DNA of 8,343 nt, taken from the IMG/VR virus record IMGVR_UViG_3300025343_000001; one strand, written 5' to 3'. Under the pieces are notes generated by a model. The model did not search any database. It worked only from the letters and a program-made list of their open reading frames with translations, and was not told the DNA's origin. The DNA is from a virus. A program made the position numbers and the translations under genes. Positions 1 through 8,343 of the stretch are shown in pieces. The first letter of the stretch is position 1. Every line of letters starts with the position of its first letter.

Positions 1-127
1 AAGATGCGGTGGCAACTGCAACACCGATGTTTGACACAGGGACCGTGCGATAGAGCGGCGTCTGCACGTTCTATTCGCTGGTTGAACCGAGTCGAAATGA
101 TGTTGATGGCGATTAACATATTCGCTG
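1..127. repeat. Terminal direct repeat, left copy (exact 127-bp match to 8217..8343); signature of a circular molecule linearised with overlap
   Basis: Direct comparison of both window ends: 127/127 identical, and the repeat abuts both window edges. Implied unit length 8,216 bp. Confidence 0.95.
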
Positions 128-137
128 TTGCGAATAT
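118..137. promoter_or_regulatory. Perfect 8-bp inverted repeat (atattcgc / gcgaatat) with 4-nt loop tgtt, in the main non-coding region
   Basis: Stem 118..125 pairs with 130..137. It sits at the start codon (117..119) of the first small Cys-rich ORF in circular coordinates and at the edge of the terminal repeat. Confidence 0.4.
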
Positions 138-350
138 CAAGCCGGTTGATTTGAACCCCTGATTGATCATGTAGAGACCGGGCATCGCGAATAGAAACGC
201 AACTGCAACAGCTCGCATTATCACCCACGAATGTGAAGTCCACGGTTCGACCGGGGAGGTCGAGCGGATCACGACTAGATCGACAAAGCGGTCGATCGGG
301 TTCGTGGGTGTGTCATATTTGGAACTCATAATGTGAGGTTCGAGGGAGGG

Positions 351-752
351 TTACCGAACAGCGACACCCCAGGCGACGACGGTCGCGAGGAACGCGACGA
401 TCGGGCCGAGGTTGCTGCTAGTGTTGATAACGTCGGCGACCTGGGGAACGTACTGGTAGCTCGCGATGATGACCGGGCCGAGAGCGATCGCGACCTGTTC
501 CCACTGCTCGTAACTGTCAAACTGCTTAGTCTCACTGCTGGCGAAGGCAATCGCGTAGGCGCCCAGGGAGATGAATGTGGCGTGTTCGGCGGTGAGCGTG
601 TAGTCGATCCACGTCAGCAGCACCTCCGAGATCCCGCCGAACTGGTAGAGCCCGGCGATGATGAACACGACTGACAGCAGCGCGGGAAGCGTCCGCAGGT
701 GAGTGTAATCCGAGAGGACGTTGCCCATCGAGTTTGAGTAGGACGACGCCAT
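351..752 (-). CDS. Small integral membrane protein, about 4 predicted TM helices (possible virion internal membrane protein, VP3-like)
   Basis: 133-aa ORF with four hydrophobic stretches (LPALLSVVFIIAGLY, ATFISLGAYAIAFA, VAIALGPVIIASY, LGPIVAFLATVVAWGVAV). Its ATG overlaps the upstream stop as ATGA at 752. The membrane-protein call is from sequence; the VP3 analogy rests on gene order only. Confidence 0.6.
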   Translation of the reverse strand: MASSYSNSMGNVLSDYTHLRTLPALLSVVFIIAGLYQFGGISEVLLTWIDYTLTAEHATFISLGAYAIAFASSETKQFDSYEQWEQVAIALGPVIIASYQYVPQVADVINTSSNLGPIVAFLATVVAWGVAVR

Positions 753-1099
753 CAGGAGTCACCCTGAATCTTGCAGAAGGTGGGAAGGTAGTTCCCGCCG
801 TCGTCCAGCTCCTGCTCTTCGACACCACGGGCGATCCAGGCGGTATCACCAAGTTGGAGGTTGCCCTGCTTGAGCGCAGTCTTCACCTCATCTTTGGCGA
901 AATAGTCCACGACACCACGGTCTTTGTCCTTGATTGTGAGGCGGAACCACGGACCGTATTCGCTTTCCCCTTCGGTGATATCGAGGACAAACCCGACCAG
1001 CGTTTCACCAGGAGAAAGTTCGATTGCTTCCGATCCATCCGACGTAGGCGCGGCGGCATCAATGAAGCCGTCCGGCGCGGTTGGCGTTTCACTCGACAT
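752..1099 (-). CDS. Hypothetical small acidic protein (116 aa from the ATG at 1099; the ORF is open back to an ATG at 1183)
   Basis: ORF 752..1183 on the minus strand. The internal ATG at 1099 is preferred because codons upstream of it run through an AT-rich promoter-like island. No recognisable motif. ATGA coupling to the downstream membrane protein gene. Confidence 0.5.
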   Translation of the reverse strand: MSSETPTAPDGFIDAAAPTSDGSEAIELSPGETLVGFVLDITEGESEYGPWFRLTIKDKDRGVVDYFAKDEVKTALKQGNLQLGDTAWIARGVEEQELDDGGNYLPTFCKIQGDS

Positions 1100-1195
1100 T
1101 GCAATTACAAATGTGAACGATTTGCATATAAAGCATGAACCTGTGCGGAGTGAAAGTAAAACCCAGAACCAGCAGCACACCATGATTTATTATAT
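1100..1195 (-). promoter_or_regulatory. AT-rich promoter-like island between the replication gene stop and the small acidic protein gene
   Basis: Only strongly AT-rich stretch in this part of the window. On the minus strand it carries TATA-like elements (ccatataaatataataaatc near 1185..1204, ctttatatgc about 25-35 nt upstream of the ATG at 1099) and a short T-rich run after the upstream stop. Archaeal TATA and leaderless-mRNA logic is established knowledge; the assignment here is inference. Confidence 0.4.
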
Positions 1196-3229
1196 TTATA
1201 TGGTACTTTTGACTGTAGATCGGATTTCGTCGAGCGCGGACGGTGGGAGCATGAGCTGGCCAGCGATGGAGATAGGCGAAGTCTCGCCAGTAGTCTCAAC
1301 CAGCTCCCTAATCGCAACCAGCTCGCGTTCACCGAGTTTCGGTTCGGGTGACGACTGTCTCTCGAATCGGGTAGTGTACCAGTTATCAGACCACTGCTTT
1401 GGTGTCAACCGACGATCTGCGTGAACAGTTTCGCACCACTCGCGAGCGACCAGCTCCGGCGGGGGAACTCGACCGGAGCGAACATCAGATTCGTCGAAGA
1501 ACGACGGGTTTTCCCAGGGTTCCGGCCCTTCGAGGGAAGAGGATAGCGGGAGATACGGAAAGTCGGTTTTATCCATTATCGAGCCGGCTCCCTCAACGAC
1601 GATCGTGCCGTAGGCCGTAGCACCGGGAGATCCGATTTCGGTCACTTCCTCTGTTGAGAGCTGAACAACAGCATCAGGTGACCATTCGGGTTCCCGATCG
1701 AATCCATCTCGTTTCGTTTCAGCAGGTGGAGCTTCAGCAGAATCAGGTATCGGTACCTCTGCTGAAACCGTATGATTCGGAGATTCGGTTTCAGTGGCAC
1801 AGAGGGGACAGGTATCTGGTTCGGCGTGGCCACACCGTCGAAGGCGTGTCTCAGAACCGATCGACCCGGCCGATCGAGCCGAAGGCCACCGTTCTGCAAG
1901 TGTTTGAGGGATCTCATCAGTCTCTTCCTGGTCATCTGCAGATTGAGACAGACGGAAGCGTGCAAGCGACGACTCAGATTGATCGATACCGTGAGGGGAC
2001 CCGCACTCCGCGCATTCGTAGGTGAGTCCCGGTCTTGAAGAACGGACGATTGAATCGCCATGTTCAACAATCTGACCGGTTTGGGAGTCGAGATACTGTT
2101 GTTGACAGGCATCGGCTTTGACAGCCGCCGTTGCCCACCGCGAGCGGCTGTATTTCTGTGTCGTCGTCGACCATTGAGAGGCGGCCCAAATTAAATACTC
2201 GTCCGAACGCTCAAGGAGGTCTTGGTCCGGATCGACGGCGACATATTCGGAGACGTAGGACGCGAAGTCCTGAATCTCGTCGTCTTTGCGCACAGTCACT
2301 GCACGATCCATATCGTGTGCAGACCAAGCGGCGCCCTCACACTCAGAGACGTGTTTCGCGACGACCGGACGGTAAGTCTCTGGGTCAGTTGCGACACTCG
2401 TGGAGATCGCAGCTGCATCGAGGATAACGACGGGATGGCTGTGAGAATAGCCCGTCGCGTCTTCCTGTGGGCCGGGATGGGGTTCGGACTGCCAGTGCCA
2501 GACGTATTCACCGGACGAGAGTCCGAGTTTGTCCTCAAGAACATAGCGAAGCGTTCGTTTCACCGAATTTGAAGAACCTGACCACGCATCACGAATCCCC
2601 CGATCGTGATCAGCTATCGGACGAAACGACCCATCGTCCTCAAGCGACGAGGCGGTCAGACCGAACAAAACCGTAACGGGCTCGGAGAACTCGGGTTCGC
2701 AAGTATGTCCCCTCGGATATTCTCCACCCATAAACTGACGCTCTAAAGCCTTGAGACGTGCGTACTGGGCAGTCTGATACGACGGGGTGAGACTGTTGTC
2801 CATATCGATCAAGAACGATTCGTAGTCGTTCCGGACCTCGGAGCCGCGAGCCATCCGAAGAAACTTGTCGCGATATCCTTCGTACCATTCAAGCATTTCC
2901 TGAATGCCAGCGATCAGCGGGAGAGACCCACGCGAAACGGTTTCCTCGATCTTTTTCTCTTCGGTTTCGCCAATTTCAACGACCCGAGTGACCGTCTCAG
3001 GCTCCTCAAGTACCTCTTCGCGAAGTTTCCGACCGTGGACGGTGGAGATAGGTTCGAAGACGCGATCTCCGTACCGTTCGATAATTCCAGAGATCCGTTC
3101 TTCAACGGTCGGGAGACCGGAAGGACGGAAAGATAGTTCTGGTGACTCAGGGCCTGTATCGGTCGACGCGGGGTTAGTCACGTTGGATAGCCAAGCCGCA
3201 TCCGCATCGGCTTCCCGCGGCGAGCTCAT
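1196..3229 (-). CDS. Putative replication initiation protein, 677 aa, with an HUH-like motif and a Cys4 zinc-ribbon-like region
   Basis: Longest ORF in the window. HSHPVVIL (codons at 2420..2443) fits the HUH motif 2 of rolling-circle Rep proteins. Upstream VLFGLT (about 2654..2671) is a weak motif-1 candidate; downstream tyrosines YRPVVAK and YVSEY (about 2243..2257) are motif-3 candidates. CAEC ... CGH ... CPLC lies at about 1799..2014. No Walker A motif. The function is inferred from motifs only. Confidence 0.5.
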   Translation of the reverse strand: MSSPREADADAAWLSNVTNPASTDTGPESPELSFRPSGLPTVEERISGIIERYGDRVFEPISTVHGRKLREEVLEEPETVTRVVEIGETEEKKIEETVSRGSLPLIAGIQEMLEWYEGYRDKFLRMARGSEVRNDYESFLIDMDNSLTPSYQTAQYARLKALERQFMGGEYPRGHTCEPEFSEPVTVLFGLTASSLEDDGSFRPIADHDRGIRDAWSGSSNSVKRTLRYVLEDKLGLSSGEYVWHWQSEPHPGPQEDATGYSHSHPVVILDAAAISTSVATDPETYRPVVAKHVSECEGAAWSAHDMDRAVTVRKDDEIQDFASYVSEYVAVDPDQDLLERSDEYLIWAASQWSTTTQKYSRSRWATAAVKADACQQQYLDSQTGQIVEHGDSIVRSSRPGLTYECAECGSPHGIDQSESSLARFRLSQSADDQEETDEIPQTLAERWPSARSAGSIGSETRLRRCGHAEPDTCPLCATETESPNHTVSAEVPIPDSAEAPPAETKRDGFDREPEWSPDAVVQLSTEEVTEIGSPGATAYGTIVVEGAGSIMDKTDFPYLPLSSSLEGPEPWENPSFFDESDVRSGRVPPPELVAREWCETVHADRRLTPKQWSDNWYTTRFERQSSPEPKLGERELVAIRELVETTGETSPISIAGQLMLPPSALDEIRSTVKSTI

Positions 3230-3254
3230 CGGTCACCTGCAGTCGACTCCATGT

Positions 3255-3671
3255 TCACAGAAACCGCCCCCGCCCAGCAGACTCGGAGAGGCCCGGCCCA
3301 AGGCCGGGTGCGGCGACAGAGTCGCCGGTCGGGTCAGCCCCCCGTTGAAGGGGGGCTGCTTCCGCCCGTGATTGCGACGGCGATTGGCGCTCGCCGTCGC
3401 TTCCGCCACCGCCACTCGTTTGGCGAGCTTCGGTCGCCTGTGAGCGGTCGGCGCAGCTAGATCCGCGTTCGAGGCAGTCGAGCGCGTGGCCGTATTCGAT
3501 TCCCGTGGTCAGGTTGCTGGTACATCTCTGTCCGCAGACAGGACACCAGAATTCACCCGGGCCGTCAGCGGTGAGATGAGAGTTGGAGTTAGAACGGGAA
3601 CCGAGAGTCGCGTCGCTGGAGAGATCATCTAGATCGGCGTCCTCGACGAAGTCGGAGAGATCGTCGTCCAT
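3255..3671 (-). CDS. Small zinc-finger protein with acidic N-terminus (138 aa from the ATG at 3671; the ORF is open back to 3794)
   Basis: ORF 3255..3794. The ATG at 3671 is preferred because upstream codons cross the AT-rich promoter island and hairpins. Contains CPVCGQRC ... H ... C ... C (CxxC plus His/Cys). N-terminus MDDDLSDFVEDADLDDL is encoded by the 48-bp repeat. Confidence 0.5.
   Translation of the reverse strand: MDDDLSDFVEDADLDDLSSDATLGSRSNSNSHLTADGPGEFWCPVCGQRCTSNLTTGIEYGHALDCLERGSSCADRSQATEARQTSGGGGSDGERQSPSQSRAEAAPLQRGADPTGDSVAAPGLGPGLSESAGRGRFL
3292..3357. promoter_or_regulatory. Cluster of three consecutive perfect GC-rich hairpins just upstream of the replication gene start (candidate origin or operator)
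   Basis: Hairpin 1: cccggcc/ggccggg, 7-bp stem, loop caa (3292..3308). Hairpin 2: cggcgac/gtcgccg, 7-bp stem, loop aga (3311..3327). Hairpin 3: agcccccc/ggggggct, 8-bp stem, loop gttgaa (3336..3357). It overlaps the 3' end of the zinc-finger ORF. Confidence 0.4.
3621..3668. repeat. 48-bp imperfect direct repeat, copy A (43/48 identical to 4903..4950); encodes acidic motif DDDLSDFVEDADLDDL
   Basis: Manual alignment of gagatcAtctagatcggCgtcctcgacgaAgtcggagagAtcgtcgTc against copy B gives 5 mismatches. Contains tctagatcgg. Confidence 0.85.
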
Positions 3672-3735
3672 GACGAAATTAATTCTAGGGAGATACAACA
3701 TATATGTTTTGGTCTGTGATAGCAGTGTTGACACT
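3672..3735 (-). promoter_or_regulatory. AT-rich promoter-like island upstream of the zinc-finger and replication gene pair
   Basis: Minus strand reads aaaacatatatgttgtatctccctagaattaatttcgtc immediately before the ATG at 3671. A TATA-like element sits about 25-35 nt upstream of the start codon, consistent with a leaderless transcript. Confidence 0.4.
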
Positions 3736-3751
3736 AAGGGTATTGTAAGCC

Positions 3752-3812
3752 GCGCGGCCCCCCACAAGGAGGGGCCGCGCAGGCTGCCGCCCACTGAAAA
3801 GGGTGGGTGGGT
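3752..3812 (-). terminator. Hairpin plus T-tract terminator-like structure downstream of the NTPase gene
   Basis: Perfect 10-bp GC stem gcgcggcccc/ggggccgcgc (3752..3761 with 3771..3780, 9-nt loop), followed by a second shorter hairpin cccac/gtggg whose loop on the coding strand contains TTTT. It lies directly after the NTPase stop and before the promoter-like island. Confidence 0.4.
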
Positions 3813-3860
3813 CGGTGAGTGGAGAACCGTGTTTAGATGTGATTATCGGACGAATTATGA

Positions 3861-4817
3861 CTATGCCGGTCCACGGTCGCGAAGCTCATCAAGAAGATCG
3901 GGCCAGTCGAGGTCGAGTGCGAATAGGTCGGGTTCGAGGTTCCAGTCCCACGGCGCCGCGTCATTCGGGTCCGGTTCCGCGGTGGCAGGTTCGAGATTTT
4001 CCAGGGACCCGCCGAACAGCTGATCGGTAGGCTTGTCGGCATCAGCAGGCCAGTTTTCGAAGAAGTCGACTTCCTTCTTTGAGTGTTTGAAGTACGCGGT
4101 CGTGAACAGCCGCTTCAGCTCAGGGTGACAGTCCTTGCCCGTGTGGAACACCGTGCCGAACACGTCGACGTTGACCTTCGCCATCCGCTTGGCGAGCGGC
4201 GAGAATTGCGCCGCGACCTCGTAGGAGTTAGTTCGAGCATCGAAGTGAGTCGACCCCTCATCGATGAAGACGAACTTCGGCCGATCGCGATGTTTGATGC
4301 AGGTGACTGCGAGGTCGTGTGCGCTGGTAACGACCTTGTCCGTGAGCGGCCAGGTCCGCGAGTTAGATATGACAAGGAGATCGTCGACGGTCGCGGAACG
4401 GAGCTCGGCAAGCAACGACATCAGGTTCGTCTTGCCCGTGTTCGGGTTACCGCAGCCACCGATGAACGCGGTCGCGTCATTGTTGGTCATCATGTCGTCG
4501 AGCCGCAGCGGGAGACGCAGCGCCGAGGCGTCGAGGTCCTGCTCAGTGATACCGACCAAATGTGAGAGCAACAAGGAGTTACCAGAATGGATCGCTTCGG
4601 ACGCCTGCCGGGACTGCTGGGTCCGATCGACGAGGGACAGCAGCTCGGAGTGCCCGGACACGTCGGGATCAATATCGTCGAGGAACACAGAGGCAGCCAC
4701 ATCGTCGGGAGCGAGTGCACCCGCACCGGAGGCGAGGTTTCGGTCCGTATCGATGTTCCCGGCCAGCTGTTCGGCGAGCTTCGCCGCGGTCAGCATCCCC
4801 TCATCGGAATCACCCAT
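3861..4817 (-). CDS. P-loop NTPase (Walker A GNPNTGKT, Walker B FVFIDE); candidate virion-associated ATPase
   Basis: 318-aa ORF. Walker A is encoded at 4428..4451 (checked by reverse-complement translation) and Walker B about 50 residues later at about 4257..4274. Start overlaps the upstream gene by 8 nt. Confidence 0.8.
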   Translation of the reverse strand: MGDSDEGMLTAAKLAEQLAGNIDTDRNLASGAGALAPDDVAASVFLDDIDPDVSGHSELLSLVDRTQQSRQASEAIHSGNSLLLSHLVGITEQDLDASALRLPLRLDDMMTNNDATAFIGGCGNPNTGKTNLMSLLAELRSATVDDLLVISNSRTWPLTDKVVTSAHDLAVTCIKHRDRPKFVFIDEGSTHFDARTNSYEVAAQFSPLAKRMAKVNVDVFGTVFHTGKDCHPELKRLFTTAYFKHSKKEVDFFENWPADADKPTDQLFGGSLENLEPATAEPDPNDAAPWDWNLEPDLFALDLDWPDLLDELRDRGPA

Positions 4818-5652
4818 CGGCGGACACCTCCGGTTTCTCTACGTGGCCGTTCCGATCAGTAGCGGGCTCGGGCTCCGAAAAGTCGAACCCGGACTTGTGG
4901 TCGAGATCGTCTAGATCGGAGTCCTCGACGAGGTCGGAGAGGTCGTCGCCGGAGTCGTCAGCCAGTCCGAACTCCTCAAGTTCCTGGTCGATCGCACGGC
5001 CGAGTCCGTCGCCCGAGTCGGGGAGCGAGCCGTCCTCGAACAACTCGACGACGCGCTCAACGGTGTTGCGGGTGGCGCGGCGGACGACCGTGAACGCGGA
5101 GGTTTCGAGGATGAATCCGCGCTGGGCGTCTTCCTGGAGTTGGCCGCGGCATTCGTGGACCGCACGAAGGGCACGGGTAAGCTCCCGATCGTCAAGCGTG
5201 CCGCGCCAGGTTCCTACGACGGTCATGTCTTCTAGGTCGACCTGTTTTGAGACGTAGAGGTTCGGGGACAGTTGGGTGATGTCGTAGGAGGTGTTGATGA
5301 ACCCGTCGTCGTCGAGAACGTCCATTTCGCGGAAGTCCTCGGGCGGGAGTCGGTAGATACCGCCGTCGAGTACGCGGGCATCGAGGTCGATCAGCCAGAC
5401 AAACGAGGGGTTGTAGAGCCAGCTAACGACCTTCGAGCCGGTCCACCAGCCGAGAGGCGTCGCGAACAACGCGGCGAATCCGGCGATGCGCCAGAAGCGG
5501 GGAATCGATGCGTCGAAGCCAGCGACCATCGCGACGATCGTGGTGACGACAGACAGCACGATCAGCTGGGGAACGCGAGCGCGGGCCCAGTCGAGTAGGT
5601 CCAGGTGAGCGGGCTGTTCGTCTCGGGTCGAAGGTGGGTCATGCTGAGTCAT
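4810..5652 (-). CDS. Membrane protein with two N-terminal TM helices and a long acidic C-terminal domain
   Basis: 280-aa ORF with hydrophobic segments VPQLIVLSVVTTIVAMVAGF and IAGFAALFATPLGWWTGSKVVSWL. ATGA start/stop overlap with the upstream gene at 5649..5652. C-terminus carries the acidic DDLSDLVEDSDLDDL motif encoded by the 48-bp repeat. Confidence 0.65.
   Translation of the reverse strand: MTQHDPPSTRDEQPAHLDLLDWARARVPQLIVLSVVTTIVAMVAGFDASIPRFWRIAGFAALFATPLGWWTGSKVVSWLYNPSFVWLIDLDARVLDGGIYRLPPEDFREMDVLDDDGFINTSYDITQLSPNLYVSKQVDLEDMTVVGTWRGTLDDRELTRALRAVHECRGQLQEDAQRGFILETSAFTVVRRATRNTVERVVELFEDGSLPDSGDGLGRAIDQELEEFGLADDSGDDLSDLVEDSDLDDLDHKSGFDFSEPEPATDRNGHVEKPEVSADG
4903..4950. repeat. 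48-bp imperfect direct repeat, copy B; encodes acidic motif DDLSDLVEDSDLDDL near the C-terminus of the 2-TM membrane protein
   Basis: gagatcGtctagatcggAgtcctcgacgaGgtcggagagGtcgtcgCc. Same reading frame and peptide register as copy A, but in a different gene. Confidence 0.85.
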
Positions 5653-6182
5653 GCTATTCTCTCGGGTTGTTCAACGCGACCGTAGACGCGGCGAGCGACG
5701 AGATACAGCGTGGTGAGAGCGACACCGAGCGCGGCGCCGACCCCAGCAGCTTGTGAGTCCGAAGCAGTGAACGGGCCGGCGACGATCGTCGAAGAGGTTT
5801 CGAGCGGGACGCCGTACAGTGTGGTTCCGTCGTCGACGGTGACTCCAGCGCGCCCGTCCGAAGAGACGACACGCATGCGGATTTCGGTCTTCCCATCGAC
5901 GATGAAGCTCTGTCTGTTAAGTTCGCGCGGTTCGCGGAGTACAACGGCCTCAGTGACGGTGACGCGATCGCGGGTGTCAGAGTCGAGGACCAGGACGGCT
6001 TCACCGTTGACGAAGTCAGAGGAACAGAGCCGAAGAGTCGGCGTTATCTCTTGTGAACAGGTTTCGGGCTGTTCCACGTCGGTCGGGTTCTCAACGGTCG
6101 CGTTCGGGGAGTCTTGAGCGGCGACAGATCCGGTCAGGGACACCACTATCACGAGAGCGATTAGGAAAGATCGAGGGAGCAT
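5649..6182 (-). CDS. Secreted type-I membrane protein with signal peptide and C-terminal TM anchor (177 aa from the ATG at 6182; the ORF is open back to 6356)
   Basis: From the ATG at 6182: MLPRSFLIALVIVVSLTGSVAAQDS is signal-peptide-like, and the C-terminus has AAGVGAALGVALTTLYLVARR followed by basic residues. The extension to 6356 encodes an Arg-rich stretch overlapping the spike gene in another frame and is probably not translated. Confidence 0.6.
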   Translation of the reverse strand: MLPRSFLIALVIVVSLTGSVAAQDSPNATVENPTDVEQPETCSQEITPTLRLCSSDFVNGEAVLVLDSDTRDRVTVTEAVVLREPRELNRQSFIVDGKTEIRMRVVSSDGRAGVTVDDGTTLYGVPLETSSTIVAGPFTASDSQAAGVGAALGVALTTLYLVARRVYGRVEQPERIA

Positions 6183-6187
6183 GGTTG

Positions 6188-7957
6188 TTAGTTGTTCAGA
6201 CCGAAGAAGGCGACCACGGCACCGACGCCGAGAGCGACGACTTCTCCGGGCAGTCCGAACATGTCGAGCTGTCCGAGGTCGAGGCCGCCGCCGTTGTTCT
6301 GCGAGTCCTCGAACTTCTCGATCAGGTCTTGATTCTGTTTTTCGAGCTGATCCCACTCCTCCTGTGAAACGTAGTTGTCGTCAGTCTGTGGTTGAGCGTT
6401 GTCGAAGCTCGTAGTCGAAACTTCTTCACCAGATTCAGTGTTCATCAACTTGTCGACGCTAAACGGGCCGTCGAGTTGCAGCGTTTCAAACTGCGTCTCG
6501 GTGGCGGCGGAGACGAAGCGCGCAGATTCAACGTTCGTGATGTTGGTTTCGAGGTCAGCCGAGGCGTCGTAGGACCACGTGCCGTCGCCGTTATCCGTCC
6601 AGTCAACAGCAGGGACAGAGACGGTTTCAGAGGCAGCAGTTGTCACTTCGATTGCGGTTCCCTCATACGGTTCCTCAGTGATCGTTATGGATCCACCATC
6701 GACCGCCGTCTCATAGGCGACCCAGTCGCCCGATACAAGACTCGTGTCGGCCGTGAAGTACACATCACCGACGAAGGTGGACGGGTCGTAGGTCGTACCC
6801 GACTCAATCGGGCCGTCCGACGAGTCGGTTAGCCCGAACGTGCCGGACAGCGTTGCGCCAGTGCTGTTGATAGTGATTGTCGCCTCGCGTTCGAGATCGA
6901 CCGGAATATTAAGCGCAATGAGGTCAGAGATTGCCTGCGAGGTGCCTTCCTCCTCGCTCATCATAGCAGCGCGTTCGCGAGGCGTCACGAGGTCACTGAC
7001 CGAGAGCTCGCCGGACTGAACATCGCCGTAGACGTTCGTAACCCACATCGAGATGCCATCCAAGACGCTTTGGTGCACGGTCGAGATCTCGTCATGGATT
7101 CCCTTCCACGTAGGCCCGTCTAAATATATGACGCTTTCGCCGTCGGGGTTGGGGTTGGAAACGATGACGTTGAAGTTATGGTCGACGTTGTAACCGCGCA
7201 CGTCCAAATTCAGAGGATCAGCAACGGCCCGTGCGCCTTCCACCATACCATTCACGCCCTCTAACTGAAAGGTCGACCCATCGAACAACGTAATGTCTCG
7301 GGTCAATTTGTCCGTGAAATTGCCGAAGTCGCGGTCAACCTTAGTGACCCCTGAATCCAGCACCGCACCCGGACTCAGGTCAGGGTGCGACTGCAGAGTC
7401 GACCGCAGATTGTAGAACTCGCGGACCGACTCATTCCATGTCTTGAGTAGATTCTCCTGAACCGTGCTCAGGTAGGCAGACACAGCAGATTTCGCCGCGG
7501 TTTGAACCTCAGACTCAGAGACTCCCGCGTTCAATTGCTCAATGGCGGCGATCTTGGCGTCGACGTAGGCGGTGTTTTCCACGCCGTCAAGGATGTTCTG
7601 GTTGTCGATGATCGTCGAGGCGTTCGTCGACTTCCGGGTTTTCACAGTCTGATAGACCTGCTGTTTCAGCACGTCACCAGTTAGTCCCTCAGCAGGTGCG
7701 TCAGAGCCGACGACCTCGTATTCACGGAGAGCCCAACCGAGTGCGACAGAGCCGGCGACACCACCGGCAATGATAACCGGAGCGATAGCCTGCCCGTTTT
7801 GGACGGGCGAGCCAGCGACTCGTGATCCGCCGTAGTAGGCCGCGCCAGCGCCAATTGTGGTAGCTCCAACCCGGCCAAGGAATTGTCGTCGATTGATACC
7901 TTCGTGATCTAGATCATCATCTAGATCGGTGTGTTTGTTCTTATTCATTGGAATCAC
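6188..7957 (-). CDS. Envelope/spike-like glycoprotein candidate, 589 aa: twin-arginine signal, large ectodomain, coiled-coil-like segment, C-terminal TM anchor
   Basis: N-terminus has INRRQFLGRVGATTIGAGAA (Tat-type RRxFLG motif plus hydrophobic region). C-terminus LPGEVVALGVGAVVAFFGL is a TM anchor, preceded by the heptad-like QEEWDQLEKQNQDLIEKFE. Five N-x-S/T sequons (NAS, NES, NFT, NST, NIT). The spike function is inferred by analogy to pleolipovirus VP4-type proteins. Confidence 0.7.
   Translation of the reverse strand: MIPMNKNKHTDLDDDLDHEGINRRQFLGRVGATTIGAGAAYYGGSRVAGSPVQNGQAIAPVIIAGGVAGSVALGWALREYEVVGSDAPAEGLTGDVLKQQVYQTVKTRKSTNASTIIDNQNILDGVENTAYVDAKIAAIEQLNAGVSESEVQTAAKSAVSAYLSTVQENLLKTWNESVREFYNLRSTLQSHPDLSPGAVLDSGVTKVDRDFGNFTDKLTRDITLFDGSTFQLEGVNGMVEGARAVADPLNLDVRGYNVDHNFNVIVSNPNPDGESVIYLDGPTWKGIHDEISTVHQSVLDGISMWVTNVYGDVQSGELSVSDLVTPRERAAMMSEEEGTSQAISDLIALNIPVDLEREATITINSTGATLSGTFGLTDSSDGPIESGTTYDPSTFVGDVYFTADTSLVSGDWVAYETAVDGGSITITEEPYEGTAIEVTTAASETVSVPAVDWTDNGDGTWSYDASADLETNITNVESARFVSAATETQFETLQLDGPFSVDKLMNTESGEEVSTTSFDNAQPQTDDNYVSQEEWDQLEKQNQDLIEKFEDSQNNGGGLDLGQLDMFGLPGEVVALGVGAVVAFFGLNN
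7906..7927. repeat. Tandem CTAGATC motifs including a perfect 10-bp palindrome gatctagatc, at the 5' end of the spike gene
   Basis: gatctagatc at 7906..7915 and tctagatcgg at 7920..7929. Encodes HTDLDDDLDH in the spike N-terminal region. Same core motif as the 48-bp repeats. Confidence 0.6.
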
Positions 7958-8135
7958 TTCTATCGTTGTCGTCGATCACGGAGCGGATCGCGTCGGAAAT
8001 ATCTCCAGCACAGTCGACACAGTGATCTCCCGCAACATCGGTGTCGACTCCATTGTGCACTTTAACCACAAGGGCAGGACCAGCCCAGCGCTCGTCGATT
8101 CGGATTTGACAGCAGTCGCAGATTATTGGTCTCAT
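7941..8135 (-). CDS. Small Cys/His-rich protein (64 aa from the ATG at 8135; the ORF is open back to 8165), possible zinc-binding
   Basis: CDCC ... H ... HCVDC pattern. The ATG at 8135 forms an ATGA overlap with the stop of the upstream Cys-rich ORF. Its 3' end overlaps the spike gene start by 17 nt. Confidence 0.35.
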   Translation of the reverse strand: MRPIICDCCQIRIDERWAGPALVVKVHNGVDTDVAGDHCVDCAGDISDAIRSVIDDNDRSDSNE

Positions 8136-8335
8136 TGGCATTTCTCCCCGTTTTCGGAAGAGCATATTGAGCTCCCCGAACAGTGCGGGCAGTCTGTTCC
8201 GTGCATCACTGAGTCAAAGATGCGGTGGCAACTGCAACACCGATGTTTGACACAGGGACCGTGCGATAGAGCGGCGTCTGCACGTTCTATTCGCTGGTTG
8301 AACCGAGTCGAAATGATGTTGATGGCGATTAACAT
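8132..8335 (-). CDS. Small Cys/His-rich protein (67 aa), crossing the terminal-repeat junction
   Basis: CVKHRCCSCH ... H ... CPHCSGSSIC pattern. First gene of the apparent spike operon. No clear TATA box upstream, so support is weak. Confidence 0.3.
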   Translation of the reverse strand: MLIAINIISTRFNQRIERADAALSHGPCVKHRCCSCHRIFDSVMHGTDCPHCSGSSICSSENGEKCQ

Positions 8336-8343
8336 ATTCGCTG
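8217..8343. repeat. Terminal direct repeat, right copy (identical to 1..127)
   Basis: Exact identity to 1..127. The minus-strand ORF 8132..8335 runs through it, so in the circular molecule that ORF begins at coordinate 119. Confidence 0.95.

Follow-up and report, generated by a model that had tools for sequence, protein, structure and literature searches.

Gene content of the window and its structural block

The contig analyzed here is IMG/VR virus record IMGVR_UViG_3300025343_000001, a stretch of 8,343 nucleotides (nt) that we refer to, at its full length, as the window; our focus is the block of genes at 3861-8335. An initial annotation, made from the sequence alone, had read this block as a virus-like structural module matching the conserved core of pleolipoviruses. 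The block carries two Cys-rich open reading frames (ORFs), a spike-like protein with a twin-arginine (Tat) signal, two membrane proteins and a P-loop nucleoside triphosphatase (NTPase), all on the minus strand and at the positions first given for them. The first 127 nt of the window (1-127) are identical to 8217-8343 (direct terminal repeat, family D1, 100% identity, spacing 8216). Because this repeat is exact, the molecule is circular, with a unit length of 8,216 bp, and was written with an assembly overlap; the circular size of 8.2 kb reported at the outset was therefore correct. A repeat as long as 127 nt is what assemblers typically leave as overlap on closing a circular template, and HRPV-8 shows the same terminal-overlap artefact, with a repeat length equal to the assembler k-mer (PMC13631441).

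All convincing ORFs, ten genes, lie on the minus strand (Table 1) and fill the coding capacity; the G+C content is 58% over the whole window. PHROG profiles match nine of the ten (E values of 1e-18 to 1e-120), and tblastn against deposited virus genomes returns pleolipoviruses only, so the pattern is not due to chance. Gene junctions show overlaps of 4, 8, 4 and 8 nt and, at one junction, a 5-nt gap, in agreement with the overlapping start and stop codons described initially. Three ORFs were listed with 5' ends that are too long: 5649-6356 (235 amino acids [aa], shortened to 177), 3255-3794 (179 to 138) and 752-1183 (143 to 115). We place their true starts at 6182, 3671 and 1099, respectively, because the alignments with homologues begin there. 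The largest non-coding stretch, and the sole sizeable one, spans 189 nt at 3672-3860.

The genes for the spike, the ORF6-like protein, the ORF7-like protein and the NTPase are contiguous within 4.1 kb (3861-7948), with overlaps of 4 to 8 nt. A published criterion places the counterparts of HRPV-1 ORFs 4, 6, 7 and 8 within 4.5 kb of one another, ordered as in isolates (PMC10599561), and both the order and the proximity are as described there. The block first recognized as a VP4 spike-to-VP8 NTPase core is thus homologous and syntenic to that of pleolipoviruses, but as delimited it was incomplete: the fifth core gene, encoding the VP3-like protein, lies at 351-752, beyond the circular junction and outside 3861-8335. 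The core gene order is that of HRPV-1, HRPV-6, HHPV-1 and Humcor2. By tblastn, the VP3-like, spike, ORF6-like, ORF7-like and NTPase proteins are 67, 23, 40, 47 and 50% identical to their counterparts in HRPV-1 and 82, 57, 74, 70 and 87% identical to those of Humcor2. The VP3-like protein is in addition 72% identical to HRPV-6 VP4 (the HRPV-1 counterpart being VP3), and the ORF7-like protein is 66% identical to its HRPV-6 homologue. The match of the ORF6-like protein in Humcor2, HrrHm2_045, aligns from M59 of the listed ORF (6182), and the protein that starts there has a signal-like N-terminal helix and a C-terminal transmembrane helix.

The 318-aa NTPase has the Walker A and Walker B motifs noted earlier (GNPNTGKT at residue 123 and FVFIDE at residue 182). 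Its similarity extends from the Humcor2 ATPase to the VP8 family proper, with 49-54% identity to HRPV-1 VP8, HHPV-1 ORF7, the HHPV-2 protein and ORF8 of HRPV-2 and HRPV-6. Profile matches of the five core genes (PHROGs 2231, 1938, 5952, 1979 and 5900) range from E 3e-37 to 5e-114. PHROGs 5900, 2231 and 1938 are those of HRPV-8 gp3, gp4 and gp5; the HRPV-8 ATPase is filed under another PHROG (1675), and HRPV-8 gp6 has none (PMC13631441). In HRPV-8, the gene directly upstream of the internal membrane protein gene, gp2, encodes a predicted single-stranded DNA (ssDNA)-binding protein of PHROG 4932 (PMC13631441). We assume from position alone that the ORF2-like protein (phrog_6009) is its equivalent; the two PHROGs differ.

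Other profile searches were negative. An NCBIfam search with nine proteins and a PDB sequence search with the NTPase and the replication protein (Rep) gave no match, and the Pfam library used had no match for the spike, VP3-like, ORF6-like or ORF7-like protein. We attribute the Pfam negatives to the library version because annotations of the homologues list the newer families PF26255 (Viral_env_HRPV), PF26064 (VP3), PF26259 (DUF8063) and PF26446/7. For a capsid or nucleocapsid protein, no ORF had a match in Pfam, PHROGs or NCBIfam, which is negative evidence only; together with the integrase searches described below, this agrees with the earlier remark that genes of neither kind are present.

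The spike ORF (6188-7957) encodes 589 aa from a GTG codon or 586 aa from the ATG at 7948, and the 586-aa product is the form on public record. When searched against the PDB, the protein matched the VP5 structures of HRPV-2 and HRPV-6 (6QGI, 6QGL and 6J7V) over nearly its full length, with E values of 6e-200 to 3e-178. The best match was HRPV-2 VP5 (6QGI, E 6e-200), of which chain residues 1-528 align with spike residues 58-585. By tblastn against deposited virus genomes, identity is 57-61% to the spikes of HRPV-2, HRPV-6, HRPV-9, HRPV-3 and Humcor2 and 23-25% to VP4 of HRPV-1, HHPV-1 and HHPV-2. The annotation had singled out the spike and the NTPase for comparison with pleolipovirus proteins, counting a lack of similarity or best matches to housekeeping genes against its proposal; neither outcome was seen.

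The N-terminus of the spike carries the twin-arginine motif INRRQFLGR. At the same position, HRPV-6, Humcor2, HHPV-1, HRPV-3 and a provirus of Halorubrum laminariae (locus L005) have RRTF(V/L)K, and HRPV-1 has no twin-arginine motif there. The 6QGI chain, obtained from virions, starts IAPLVG... and aligns from spike residue 58 (IAPVII...); cleavage of the signal is therefore predicted after GQA. A hydrophobic stretch at residues 57-75 coincides in the alignment with residue 1 of mature HRPV-2 VP5, and a transmembrane segment occupies residues 569-587. The protein thus appears to have a type-I layout, consisting of an RRQFLGR signal, a predicted cleavage site, a hydrophobic mature N-terminus and a C-terminal transmembrane anchor.

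VP5 has a V-shaped two-domain fold, is a monomer on the virion and mediates fusion with the cytoplasmic membrane of the host; its ~20 N-terminal residues are hydrophobic and shielded and form a putative fusion peptide, and its N2 subdomain is the least conserved, putatively receptor-binding part (PMC6381117). From ~60% identity to the solved structures, we infer a V-shaped two-domain ectodomain for the spike in the window. Relative to VP5, conservation is poorest at query residues ~197-275, within the first half of the chain, and this stretch is probably the equivalent of the variable N2 subdomain. Homology thus shows a predicted Tat-exported, C-terminally anchored spike related to VP5 of HRPV-2/6, and the same homology, taken across the block, indicates that 3861-8335 encodes particle and entry machinery.

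Table 1. Features of the window; genes are in the direction of transcription around the circle, from the 138-aa protein to the NTPase
Feature	Position	Strand	Remarks
Acidic/CxxC protein, 138 aa, upstream of Rep	3255-3671	minus	start M42
Rep, 677 aa, HUH-type rolling-circle initiator (predicted)	1196-3229	minus	DUF1424, phrog_10542
ORF2-like, 115 aa from M29; homologue of HRPV-1 ORF2/HRPV-6 ORF3	752-1099	minus	phrog_6009, E 9e-19
VP3-like internal membrane protein, 133 aa	351-752	minus	phrog_5900, E 3e-60
Junction ORF, 137 aa	329->1 joined to 8216->8132	minus	ATG at 329
Small zinc-ribbon-like gene, 64 aa from M11	7941-8135	minus	CxxC...CxxC
Spike/membrane-fusion protein precursor, 586 aa	6188-7948	minus	phrog_2231, E 5e-114; PDB 6QGI
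ORF6-like protein, 177 aa	5649-6182	minus	phrog_1938, E 3e-37
ORF7-like membrane protein, 280 aa	4810-5652	minus	phrog_5952, E 1e-104
VP8-like P-loop NTPase, 318 aa	3861-4817	minus	phrog_1979, E 2e-97
Bipartite non-coding element	3752..3822	minus	folding, conservation in relatives
TATA-like AT-rich sequence	3695..3711	minus	read from sequence; kept in relatives
Terminal direct repeat	8217..8343		identical to 1-127; assembly overlap

Replication protein, genus assignment and nature of the element

The product of 1196-3229 matches the Pfam family DUF1424, 'putative rep protein', with a score of 59.2 bits (cut-off 23), and phrog_10542, 'replication protein' (E 6e-120). It contains TVLFGLTAS, HSH (residues 263-265) and YVSEY (325-329) in the order expected of an HUH endonuclease, along with two CxxC pairs that it has in common with the HHPV-1 Rep. 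These features point to an HUH rolling-circle replication initiator. Identity is 37-38% to the Reps of HHPV-1 and HHPV-2 (over ~485 aa), and the Reps of HRPV-1 and HRPV-6, which belong to another HUH lineage, gave no tblastn match. The C-terminal part of the protein has a distribution of its own. Residues ~524-677 (1196-1660) had no tblastn match in deposited viruses or plasmids, where matches stop at ~523-528; these ~150 residues are kept in the Halorubrum laminariae provirus (82% identity over the full length) and in metagenome contigs, and the extreme C-terminus, with an LPPSA motif, aligns with HHPV-1.

The family Pleolipoviridae is defined by a conserved cluster of five genes (HRPV-1 genes 3, 4 and 8 and ORFs 6 and 7), and the genus Alphapleolipovirus is defined by a rolling-circle Rep (PMC12642806). 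All five core genes are present, and the HUH Rep places the genome in Alphapleolipovirus. Markers of the other genera were not found. The betapleolipovirus proteins HRPV-3 ORF6 and ORF9 (Rep-Arvir) had best tblastn E values of 0.9-2 against all frames of the window. As for gammapleolipovirus traits, the contig is circular, not linear, and no ORF contains a type-B DNA polymerase domain. The best matches of every gene are in alphapleolipoviruses or in proviruses with HUH Reps.

At the nucleotide level, megablast against deposited viruses returned one record, with 25% coverage at 81.5% identity. Expressed as blastn identity x coverage, similarity was 41% to Humcor2, 29% to HRPV-6, 6% to HRPV-1 and 4% to HHPV-1; the virus collection searched did not include HRPV-8 and Tebi-PV1 (2025-26). 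The species criterion applied was less than 95% nucleotide identity to every described member. With best values of 41% for a deposited virus and 63% for the Halorubrum laminariae provirus, the window represents a new species-level genome within the known genus Alphapleolipovirus, not a new lineage or a new kind of element. The earlier suggestion that it may be a new lineage was an overstatement.

Taken together, these results make it very probable that the window is the complete circular genome (8,216 nt/bp) of an uncultivated alphapleolipovirus of the family Pleolipoviridae, with Halorubrum as its most likely host. From what is known of the family, the genome would be enclosed in a host-derived lipid vesicle with the spike outside, the VP3-like protein inside and no capsid. 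Release of particles would be by non-lytic budding and entry by fusion that the spike mediates, in which the hydrophobic first ~20 residues of the mature spike may act as the fusion peptide. The HUH Rep, again by analogy with the family, would nick the replicon and drive rolling-circle replication. Since there is no integrase, the element would be expected to persist as an episome or in a chronic infection rather than as a provirus.

Several points weigh against this assignment. The whole case consists of the genes of a single metagenome contig, and whether the genome is ssDNA or double-stranded DNA is not readable from its sequence. Even in cultured pleolipoviruses, the NTPase and the ORF6- and ORF7-like proteins have no assigned function. 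Plasmids of the pHK2 type and proviruses share these genes, so gene content alone is no proof of virions. The promoter, terminator and origin assignments considered below are inferences only.

The Rep family bears on whether the element still forms particles, since it is common to small haloarchaeal plasmids. The Rep in the window is 39.5% identical to that of an 8.3-kb Halobaculum plasmid, 30% identical to that of Haloferax lucentense pHK2 (10.8 kb) and 23-29% identical to those of small haloarchaeal plasmids (1.6-3.8 kb). A pHK2-like plasmid derived from a pleolipovirus, replicating by rolling circle and no longer forming infectious particles, would also fit the missing integrase and the fact that the element is known here from genes, not virions. 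On the other hand, none of the five core structural genes is disrupted, and they are closely packed, with stop codons that overlap the next starts; their identity to the genes of viruses obtained as particles or from virus stocks is 57-87% (PMC7911831). Megablast against the plasmids in PLSDB returned no match. We consider this origin very unlikely.

Pleolipoviruses infect extremely halophilic archaea (class Halobacteria), and the relatives of the element are, indirectly, consistent with such a host. When one genome per prokaryotic species was scanned with the NTPase, 21 related loci were found. Thirteen of these lie in 12 Halorubrum genomes and show 85-90% identity; the copies in Haloparvum (65%) and in Halobellus, Natronomonas and Halorhabdus (45-51%) are more distant. 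Identity to the copies at the 13 Halorubrum proviral loci is mostly 65-94% for the NTPase, ORF7-like and VP3-like proteins, and from these relatives the host is most likely a Halorubrum species. Most Halorubrum proviruses other than that of Halorubrum laminariae have a Humcor2-type Rep that is ~31% identical to the one in the window. Their spikes range from no detectable identity to 61%.

For most genes, then, the closest relatives are integrated proviruses with XerC/D-like integrases beside tRNA genes, and the window could represent the excised circle of such a temperate provirus, as Humcor2 does for Halorubrum coriense. We regard this as very improbable. A tblastn search with the Humcor2 integrase found no integrase-like sequence in any frame of the window (best E 0.18), and the window contains no tRNA or tRNA fragment. 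The genome is also smaller than that of Humcor2 (8.2 versus 11.8 kb) and belongs to the low end of the size range; PMC10599561 reports a correlation between genome size in pleolipoviruses and the presence or absence of an integrase, with no direction given. Furthermore, the integrase-less order of NTPase, hairpin, small ORF and Rep recurs in four independent contigs (L030, L041, L043 and L044).

Nucleotide relatives of the proposed viral genome are found among metagenome contigs, which carry Reps that are 81-94% identical. Contig L025 is 93% identical over 1-3241 and 7944-8216, and contig L030 is 87% identical over 500-3242 and 3659-6262. Public records from JGI metagenome contigs include proteins identical to the spike (586 aa), NTPase, Rep, VP3-like, ORF7-like and ORF2-like proteins; clustering of ~15 billion proteins at 90% leaves the spike, NTPase and VP3-like proteins as singletons.

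The pattern of relatedness is mosaic. The NTPase is 87-90% identical to those of Humcor2-type proviruses, the Rep is 82% identical to that of the Halorubrum laminariae provirus only, and the N-terminal half of the spike is 85% identical (nucleotide level) to contig L055. Because many related strains coexist in the same sample type, such a pattern might also arise if co-occurring pleolipoviruses had been assembled into a chimera and falsely circularized. Mosaicism, however, is the documented norm in the family (the HRPV-8 spike swap in PMC13631441; also PMC5867852), and at least one independent collinear contig reaches across each boundary between segments of different relatedness: L025 from VP3 to the cassette upstream of the spike, L030 from ORF6 through VP3, and L055 from the cassette to the spike. 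There is no broken ORF, and the terminal repeat is exact. A chimeric assembly is accordingly very improbable, and we retain the reading of the window as one intact alphapleolipovirus genome.

The cassette upstream of the spike and the conserved hairpin element

Between the VP3-like gene and the spike gene lie two small genes, which we refer to as the cassette. They correspond to the two Cys-rich ORFs of the initial annotation, both of which are present with changed boundaries. The 67-aa ORF (8132-8335), with two CxxC pairs, is the 8-Cys, zinc-ribbon-like C-terminal tail of a 137-aa ORF that was split by linearization of the circle at the junction. The ATG of this junction ORF lies 21 nt past the stop of the VP3-like gene, and positions 1-329 encode its N-terminal two thirds, with one clear hydrophobic helix and a second, weaker one. 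The tail has weak family matches only (Pfam DUF7129, E 0.09-0.11; phrog_24592, E 0.012-0.018). Homologues of the junction ORF come from metagenomes only and comprise three fused forms (131-149 aa, 84-89% identity) and many forms of ~106 aa that lack the Cys tail; in L025 and L034, the two halves are out of frame with each other. A ~45-aa Cys-rich tail, HGPCVKHRCxSCHRIFDSV.HGTDCPHCSGSSICSSENREKCQ (8132-8270), also ends unrelated metagenomic proteins at 78-93% identity, including PadR-like regulators, and has the look of a terminal module that was shuffled, or of a recombination junction.

The second ORF, listed as 74 aa (7941-8165) likewise contains two CxxC pairs. Its most likely start is M11 (8135), which leaves 64 aa, and relatives agree with this start. 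The 64-aa gene has an ATGA overlap with the upstream stop and overlaps the spike start by 8 nt. Its 25 homologues, again from metagenomes only, are 74-92% identical. It occupies the same place before the spike in contigs L055 and L056, and L055 keeps the 8-nt overlap.

In both the window and L025, the cassette lies after VP3 and before the spike. Elsewhere its arrangement varies: L027 has the 64-aa gene alone, L034 has the cassette upstream of the small ORF and Rep, and L055 has it after two further genes. It is absent from all isolates and genome-borne proviruses examined. Contig L055 (JGI sample 3300026560) has a different backbone, whose VP3, ORF6/7-like and NTPase proteins do not match those of the window at E 1e-5. 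Its positions 1561-3235 are 85-87% identical in nucleotide sequence to 6882-8216 plus 68-308 of the window and 98% identical to 1-45, a span that comprises the cassette and the first ~355 residues of the spike. Because the sharing is limited to that span, the cassette and the putative receptor-binding N-terminal half of the spike appear to have been exchanged together between backbones. Modular exchange of the spike is known in the family from HRPV-8 (PMC13631441).

The non-coding stretch at 3672-3860, when folded as ssDNA, yields -32 kcal/mol versus -17 kcal/mol for shuffled controls (z = -4.8). The bipartite element within it falls inside the spurious extension of the 179-aa ORF. Its first part (3787-3822) consists of ACCCACC-type repeats and a small hairpin, CCAC(T/C)CACC-GACCCACC-CACCC, followed by a short loop and GTGGGCGG. 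The second part (3752-3780) is a 29-nt GC-rich hairpin with a stem of 10-11 bp, GCGCGGCCCC-TCCTTGT-GGGGGGCCGCGC. In relatives, this second hairpin has the near-invariant consensus GCGCGRCCCC-TCCTTGT-GGGGGGYCGCGC.

Allowing up to four edits, we found the second hairpin at 12 of the 13 Halorubrum genome loci, in the Haloparvum contig, in three Halobellus proviruses whose NTPases are only 50% identical to the one in the window, and in related metagenome contigs (loci L001, L004, L005, L007-L012, L014-L017, L020, L021, L023, L027, L030, L041, L043 and L044). It is always on the gene-sense strand and 3' of the NTPase gene, from which it is separated by 60 nt to 1.8 kb (Halorubrum) or 1-2.4 kb (Halobellus). 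The elements that carry it span three HUH Rep lineages (the window/HHPV, Humcor2 and HRPV-6 types), and no protein-coding neighbor beyond the structural module is common to all copies.

In an alignment of 18 sequences, the stem of this hairpin is nearly invariant. At one internal pair, 11 sequences have A-T, 4 have G-T and 1, that of the window, has G-C, with non-canonical A-G and T-G besides, and the closing pair covaries (C-G in 7, T-A in 5 and T-G in 3). The upstream small hairpin has an altered sequence in Halobellus that is still complementary (CCACCTA...TAGGTGG). A G-T pair can be tolerated only where it is the sense strand that folds, as ssDNA or RNA.

The second hairpin is not present, at up to four edits, in HRPV-1, HRPV-6, HHPV-1 or HRPV-3, which were checked directly; among deposited viruses, blastn finds it in Humcor2 alone, with one extra G, and the Humcor2 paper does not mention it (PMC7911831). 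It matches no Rfam family, and an Rfam scan of the whole window gave two sub-threshold chance matches only. Scans with the hairpin pattern and with an exact 38-mer, and three small-ORF/Rep protein scans, found no match in the IMG/VR collection searched, from which this contig and its close relatives were absent. No origin or packaging site of an alphapleolipovirus is described in the literature searched.

We rank three candidate roles for the element: first a replication-related site (double-strand or single-strand origin), second a packaging signal and third a plain terminator. The terminator comes last because it leaves the conservation of the loop sequence across genera unexplained. As read from the sequence, the hairpin region would be the best candidate for an origin or packaging site. 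The TATA-like box lies ~30 nt before the ATG at 3671 and may be the promoter of a leaderless Rep-operon transcript. The ten genes could then form a single clockwise transcription series, from the TATA-like box near 3700 to the hairpin at 3752-3780 after the NTPase gene. A scan for sigma-70 promoters and intrinsic terminators stayed at chance level, with models that are not applicable to archaea.

Plus-strand GC skew is above 0 in most intervals of the contig and peaks over 3250-6250, and the cumulative skew rises from 0.15 to ~1.8. This strand asymmetry, with ten genes on the minus strand and positive skew on the opposite strand, fits unidirectional transcription, rolling-circle replication or a combination of the two.

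Two further repeat families lie in coding sequence. The two copies of a 46-nt direct repeat (91% identical, at 3621-3666 and 4903-4948) both encode the acidic motif DDLSDxVEDxDLDDL, one at the N-terminus of the 138-aa protein, the other close to the C-terminal end of the ORF7-like protein. Cross-matches of the same kind occur in relatives L028, L030, L044 and L048, and a related motif, DLDDDLD, is found at the N-terminus of the spike precursor (7906-7930). The repeat might represent an interaction motif common to these proteins, or else a small gene-conversion tract. We rejected the CTAG/GATCTAGATC palindromes (repeat family D2) as possible cis sites, since the copies just encode D-L-D-D; under a Markov expectation, CTAG occurs 9 times (9.2 expected) and GATC 68 times (68.3 expected).

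With 164 metagenomic pleolipovirus genomes already published in 2023 (PMC10599561), one further uncultivated, integrase-less alphapleolipovirus is unsurprising, though useful for cataloguing and for studies of host range and spike diversity. The conserved double hairpin offers a short, concrete target toward the replication origin or packaging signal of alphapleolipoviruses. The 64-aa zinc-ribbon gene, which travels with the N-terminal half of the spike, is a possible spike-associated accessory factor. We put forward only tentatively, as a combined proposal that may well fail, that the hairpin element is a shared cis-acting site (origin/packaging) and that the cassette is a previously undescribed accessory part of the entry/host-range module.

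Comparison with named systems

Among deposited viruses, the best match to the window is Humcor2 (MW344764), an Alphapleolipovirus induced from a provirus of Halorubrum coriense, which shares the order of the core genes and the hairpin. Humcor2 differs in being longer (11.8 kb), in having an integrase, an attP site and several reverse-strand genes, and in its Rep, which is 32% identical. Unlike the window, it has no cassette between the membrane-protein and spike genes.

The spike is homologous to those of HRPV-2 and HRPV-6 across the whole mature chain, including the hydrophobic N-terminus and the C-terminal anchor, and the core block of these viruses is syntenic with that of the window. The spikes are ~60% identical, whereas the NTPases are only 51-53% identical. 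HRPV-6 also has a Rep of a different HUH lineage, reverse-strand ORFs and no copy of the hairpin at up to four edits.

HHPV-1 and HHPV-2 have a Rep of the same lineage as the window and a similar genome size (8.1-8.2 kb). HHPV-1 also resembles the window in having no annotated integrase and nearly all genes on one strand. The two viruses differ from it in spike type (~24-25% identity), in their host, Haloarcula, and in their NTPases (52-54% identity).

The closest overall relative found is the provirus of Halorubrum laminariae R60 (L005; NZ_JANHDL010000005), at an identity x coverage of 63%. The Rep is 82% identical, the NTPase 90%, the ORF2-like protein 73%, the VP3-like protein 75% and the ORF7-like protein 72%, and its hairpin is that of the window except for the covarying pair. 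In contrast to the window, this element is integrated, has reverse-strand ORFs and an integrase-like gene with 34% identity to that of Humcor2, carries a spike that is 58% identical and lacks the cassette.

The origin of the betapleolipovirus SNJ2, an element defined by mutagenesis, has a comparable layout in the intergenic region beside the replication operon: an inverted repeat that varies comes first, and a highly conserved hairpin follows (PMC13107129). There, the replication protein is Rep-Arvir rather than an HUH Rep, and the hairpin, at 176-197 downstream of orf19, is 22 nt long compared with 29 nt in the window. We considered whether the hairpin in the window is the SNJ2 origin hairpin itself and rejected this, given the 22-nt length of the latter and its place beside a Rep-Arvir gene; the likeness, drawn from the descriptions and not from the sequences, is one of architecture.

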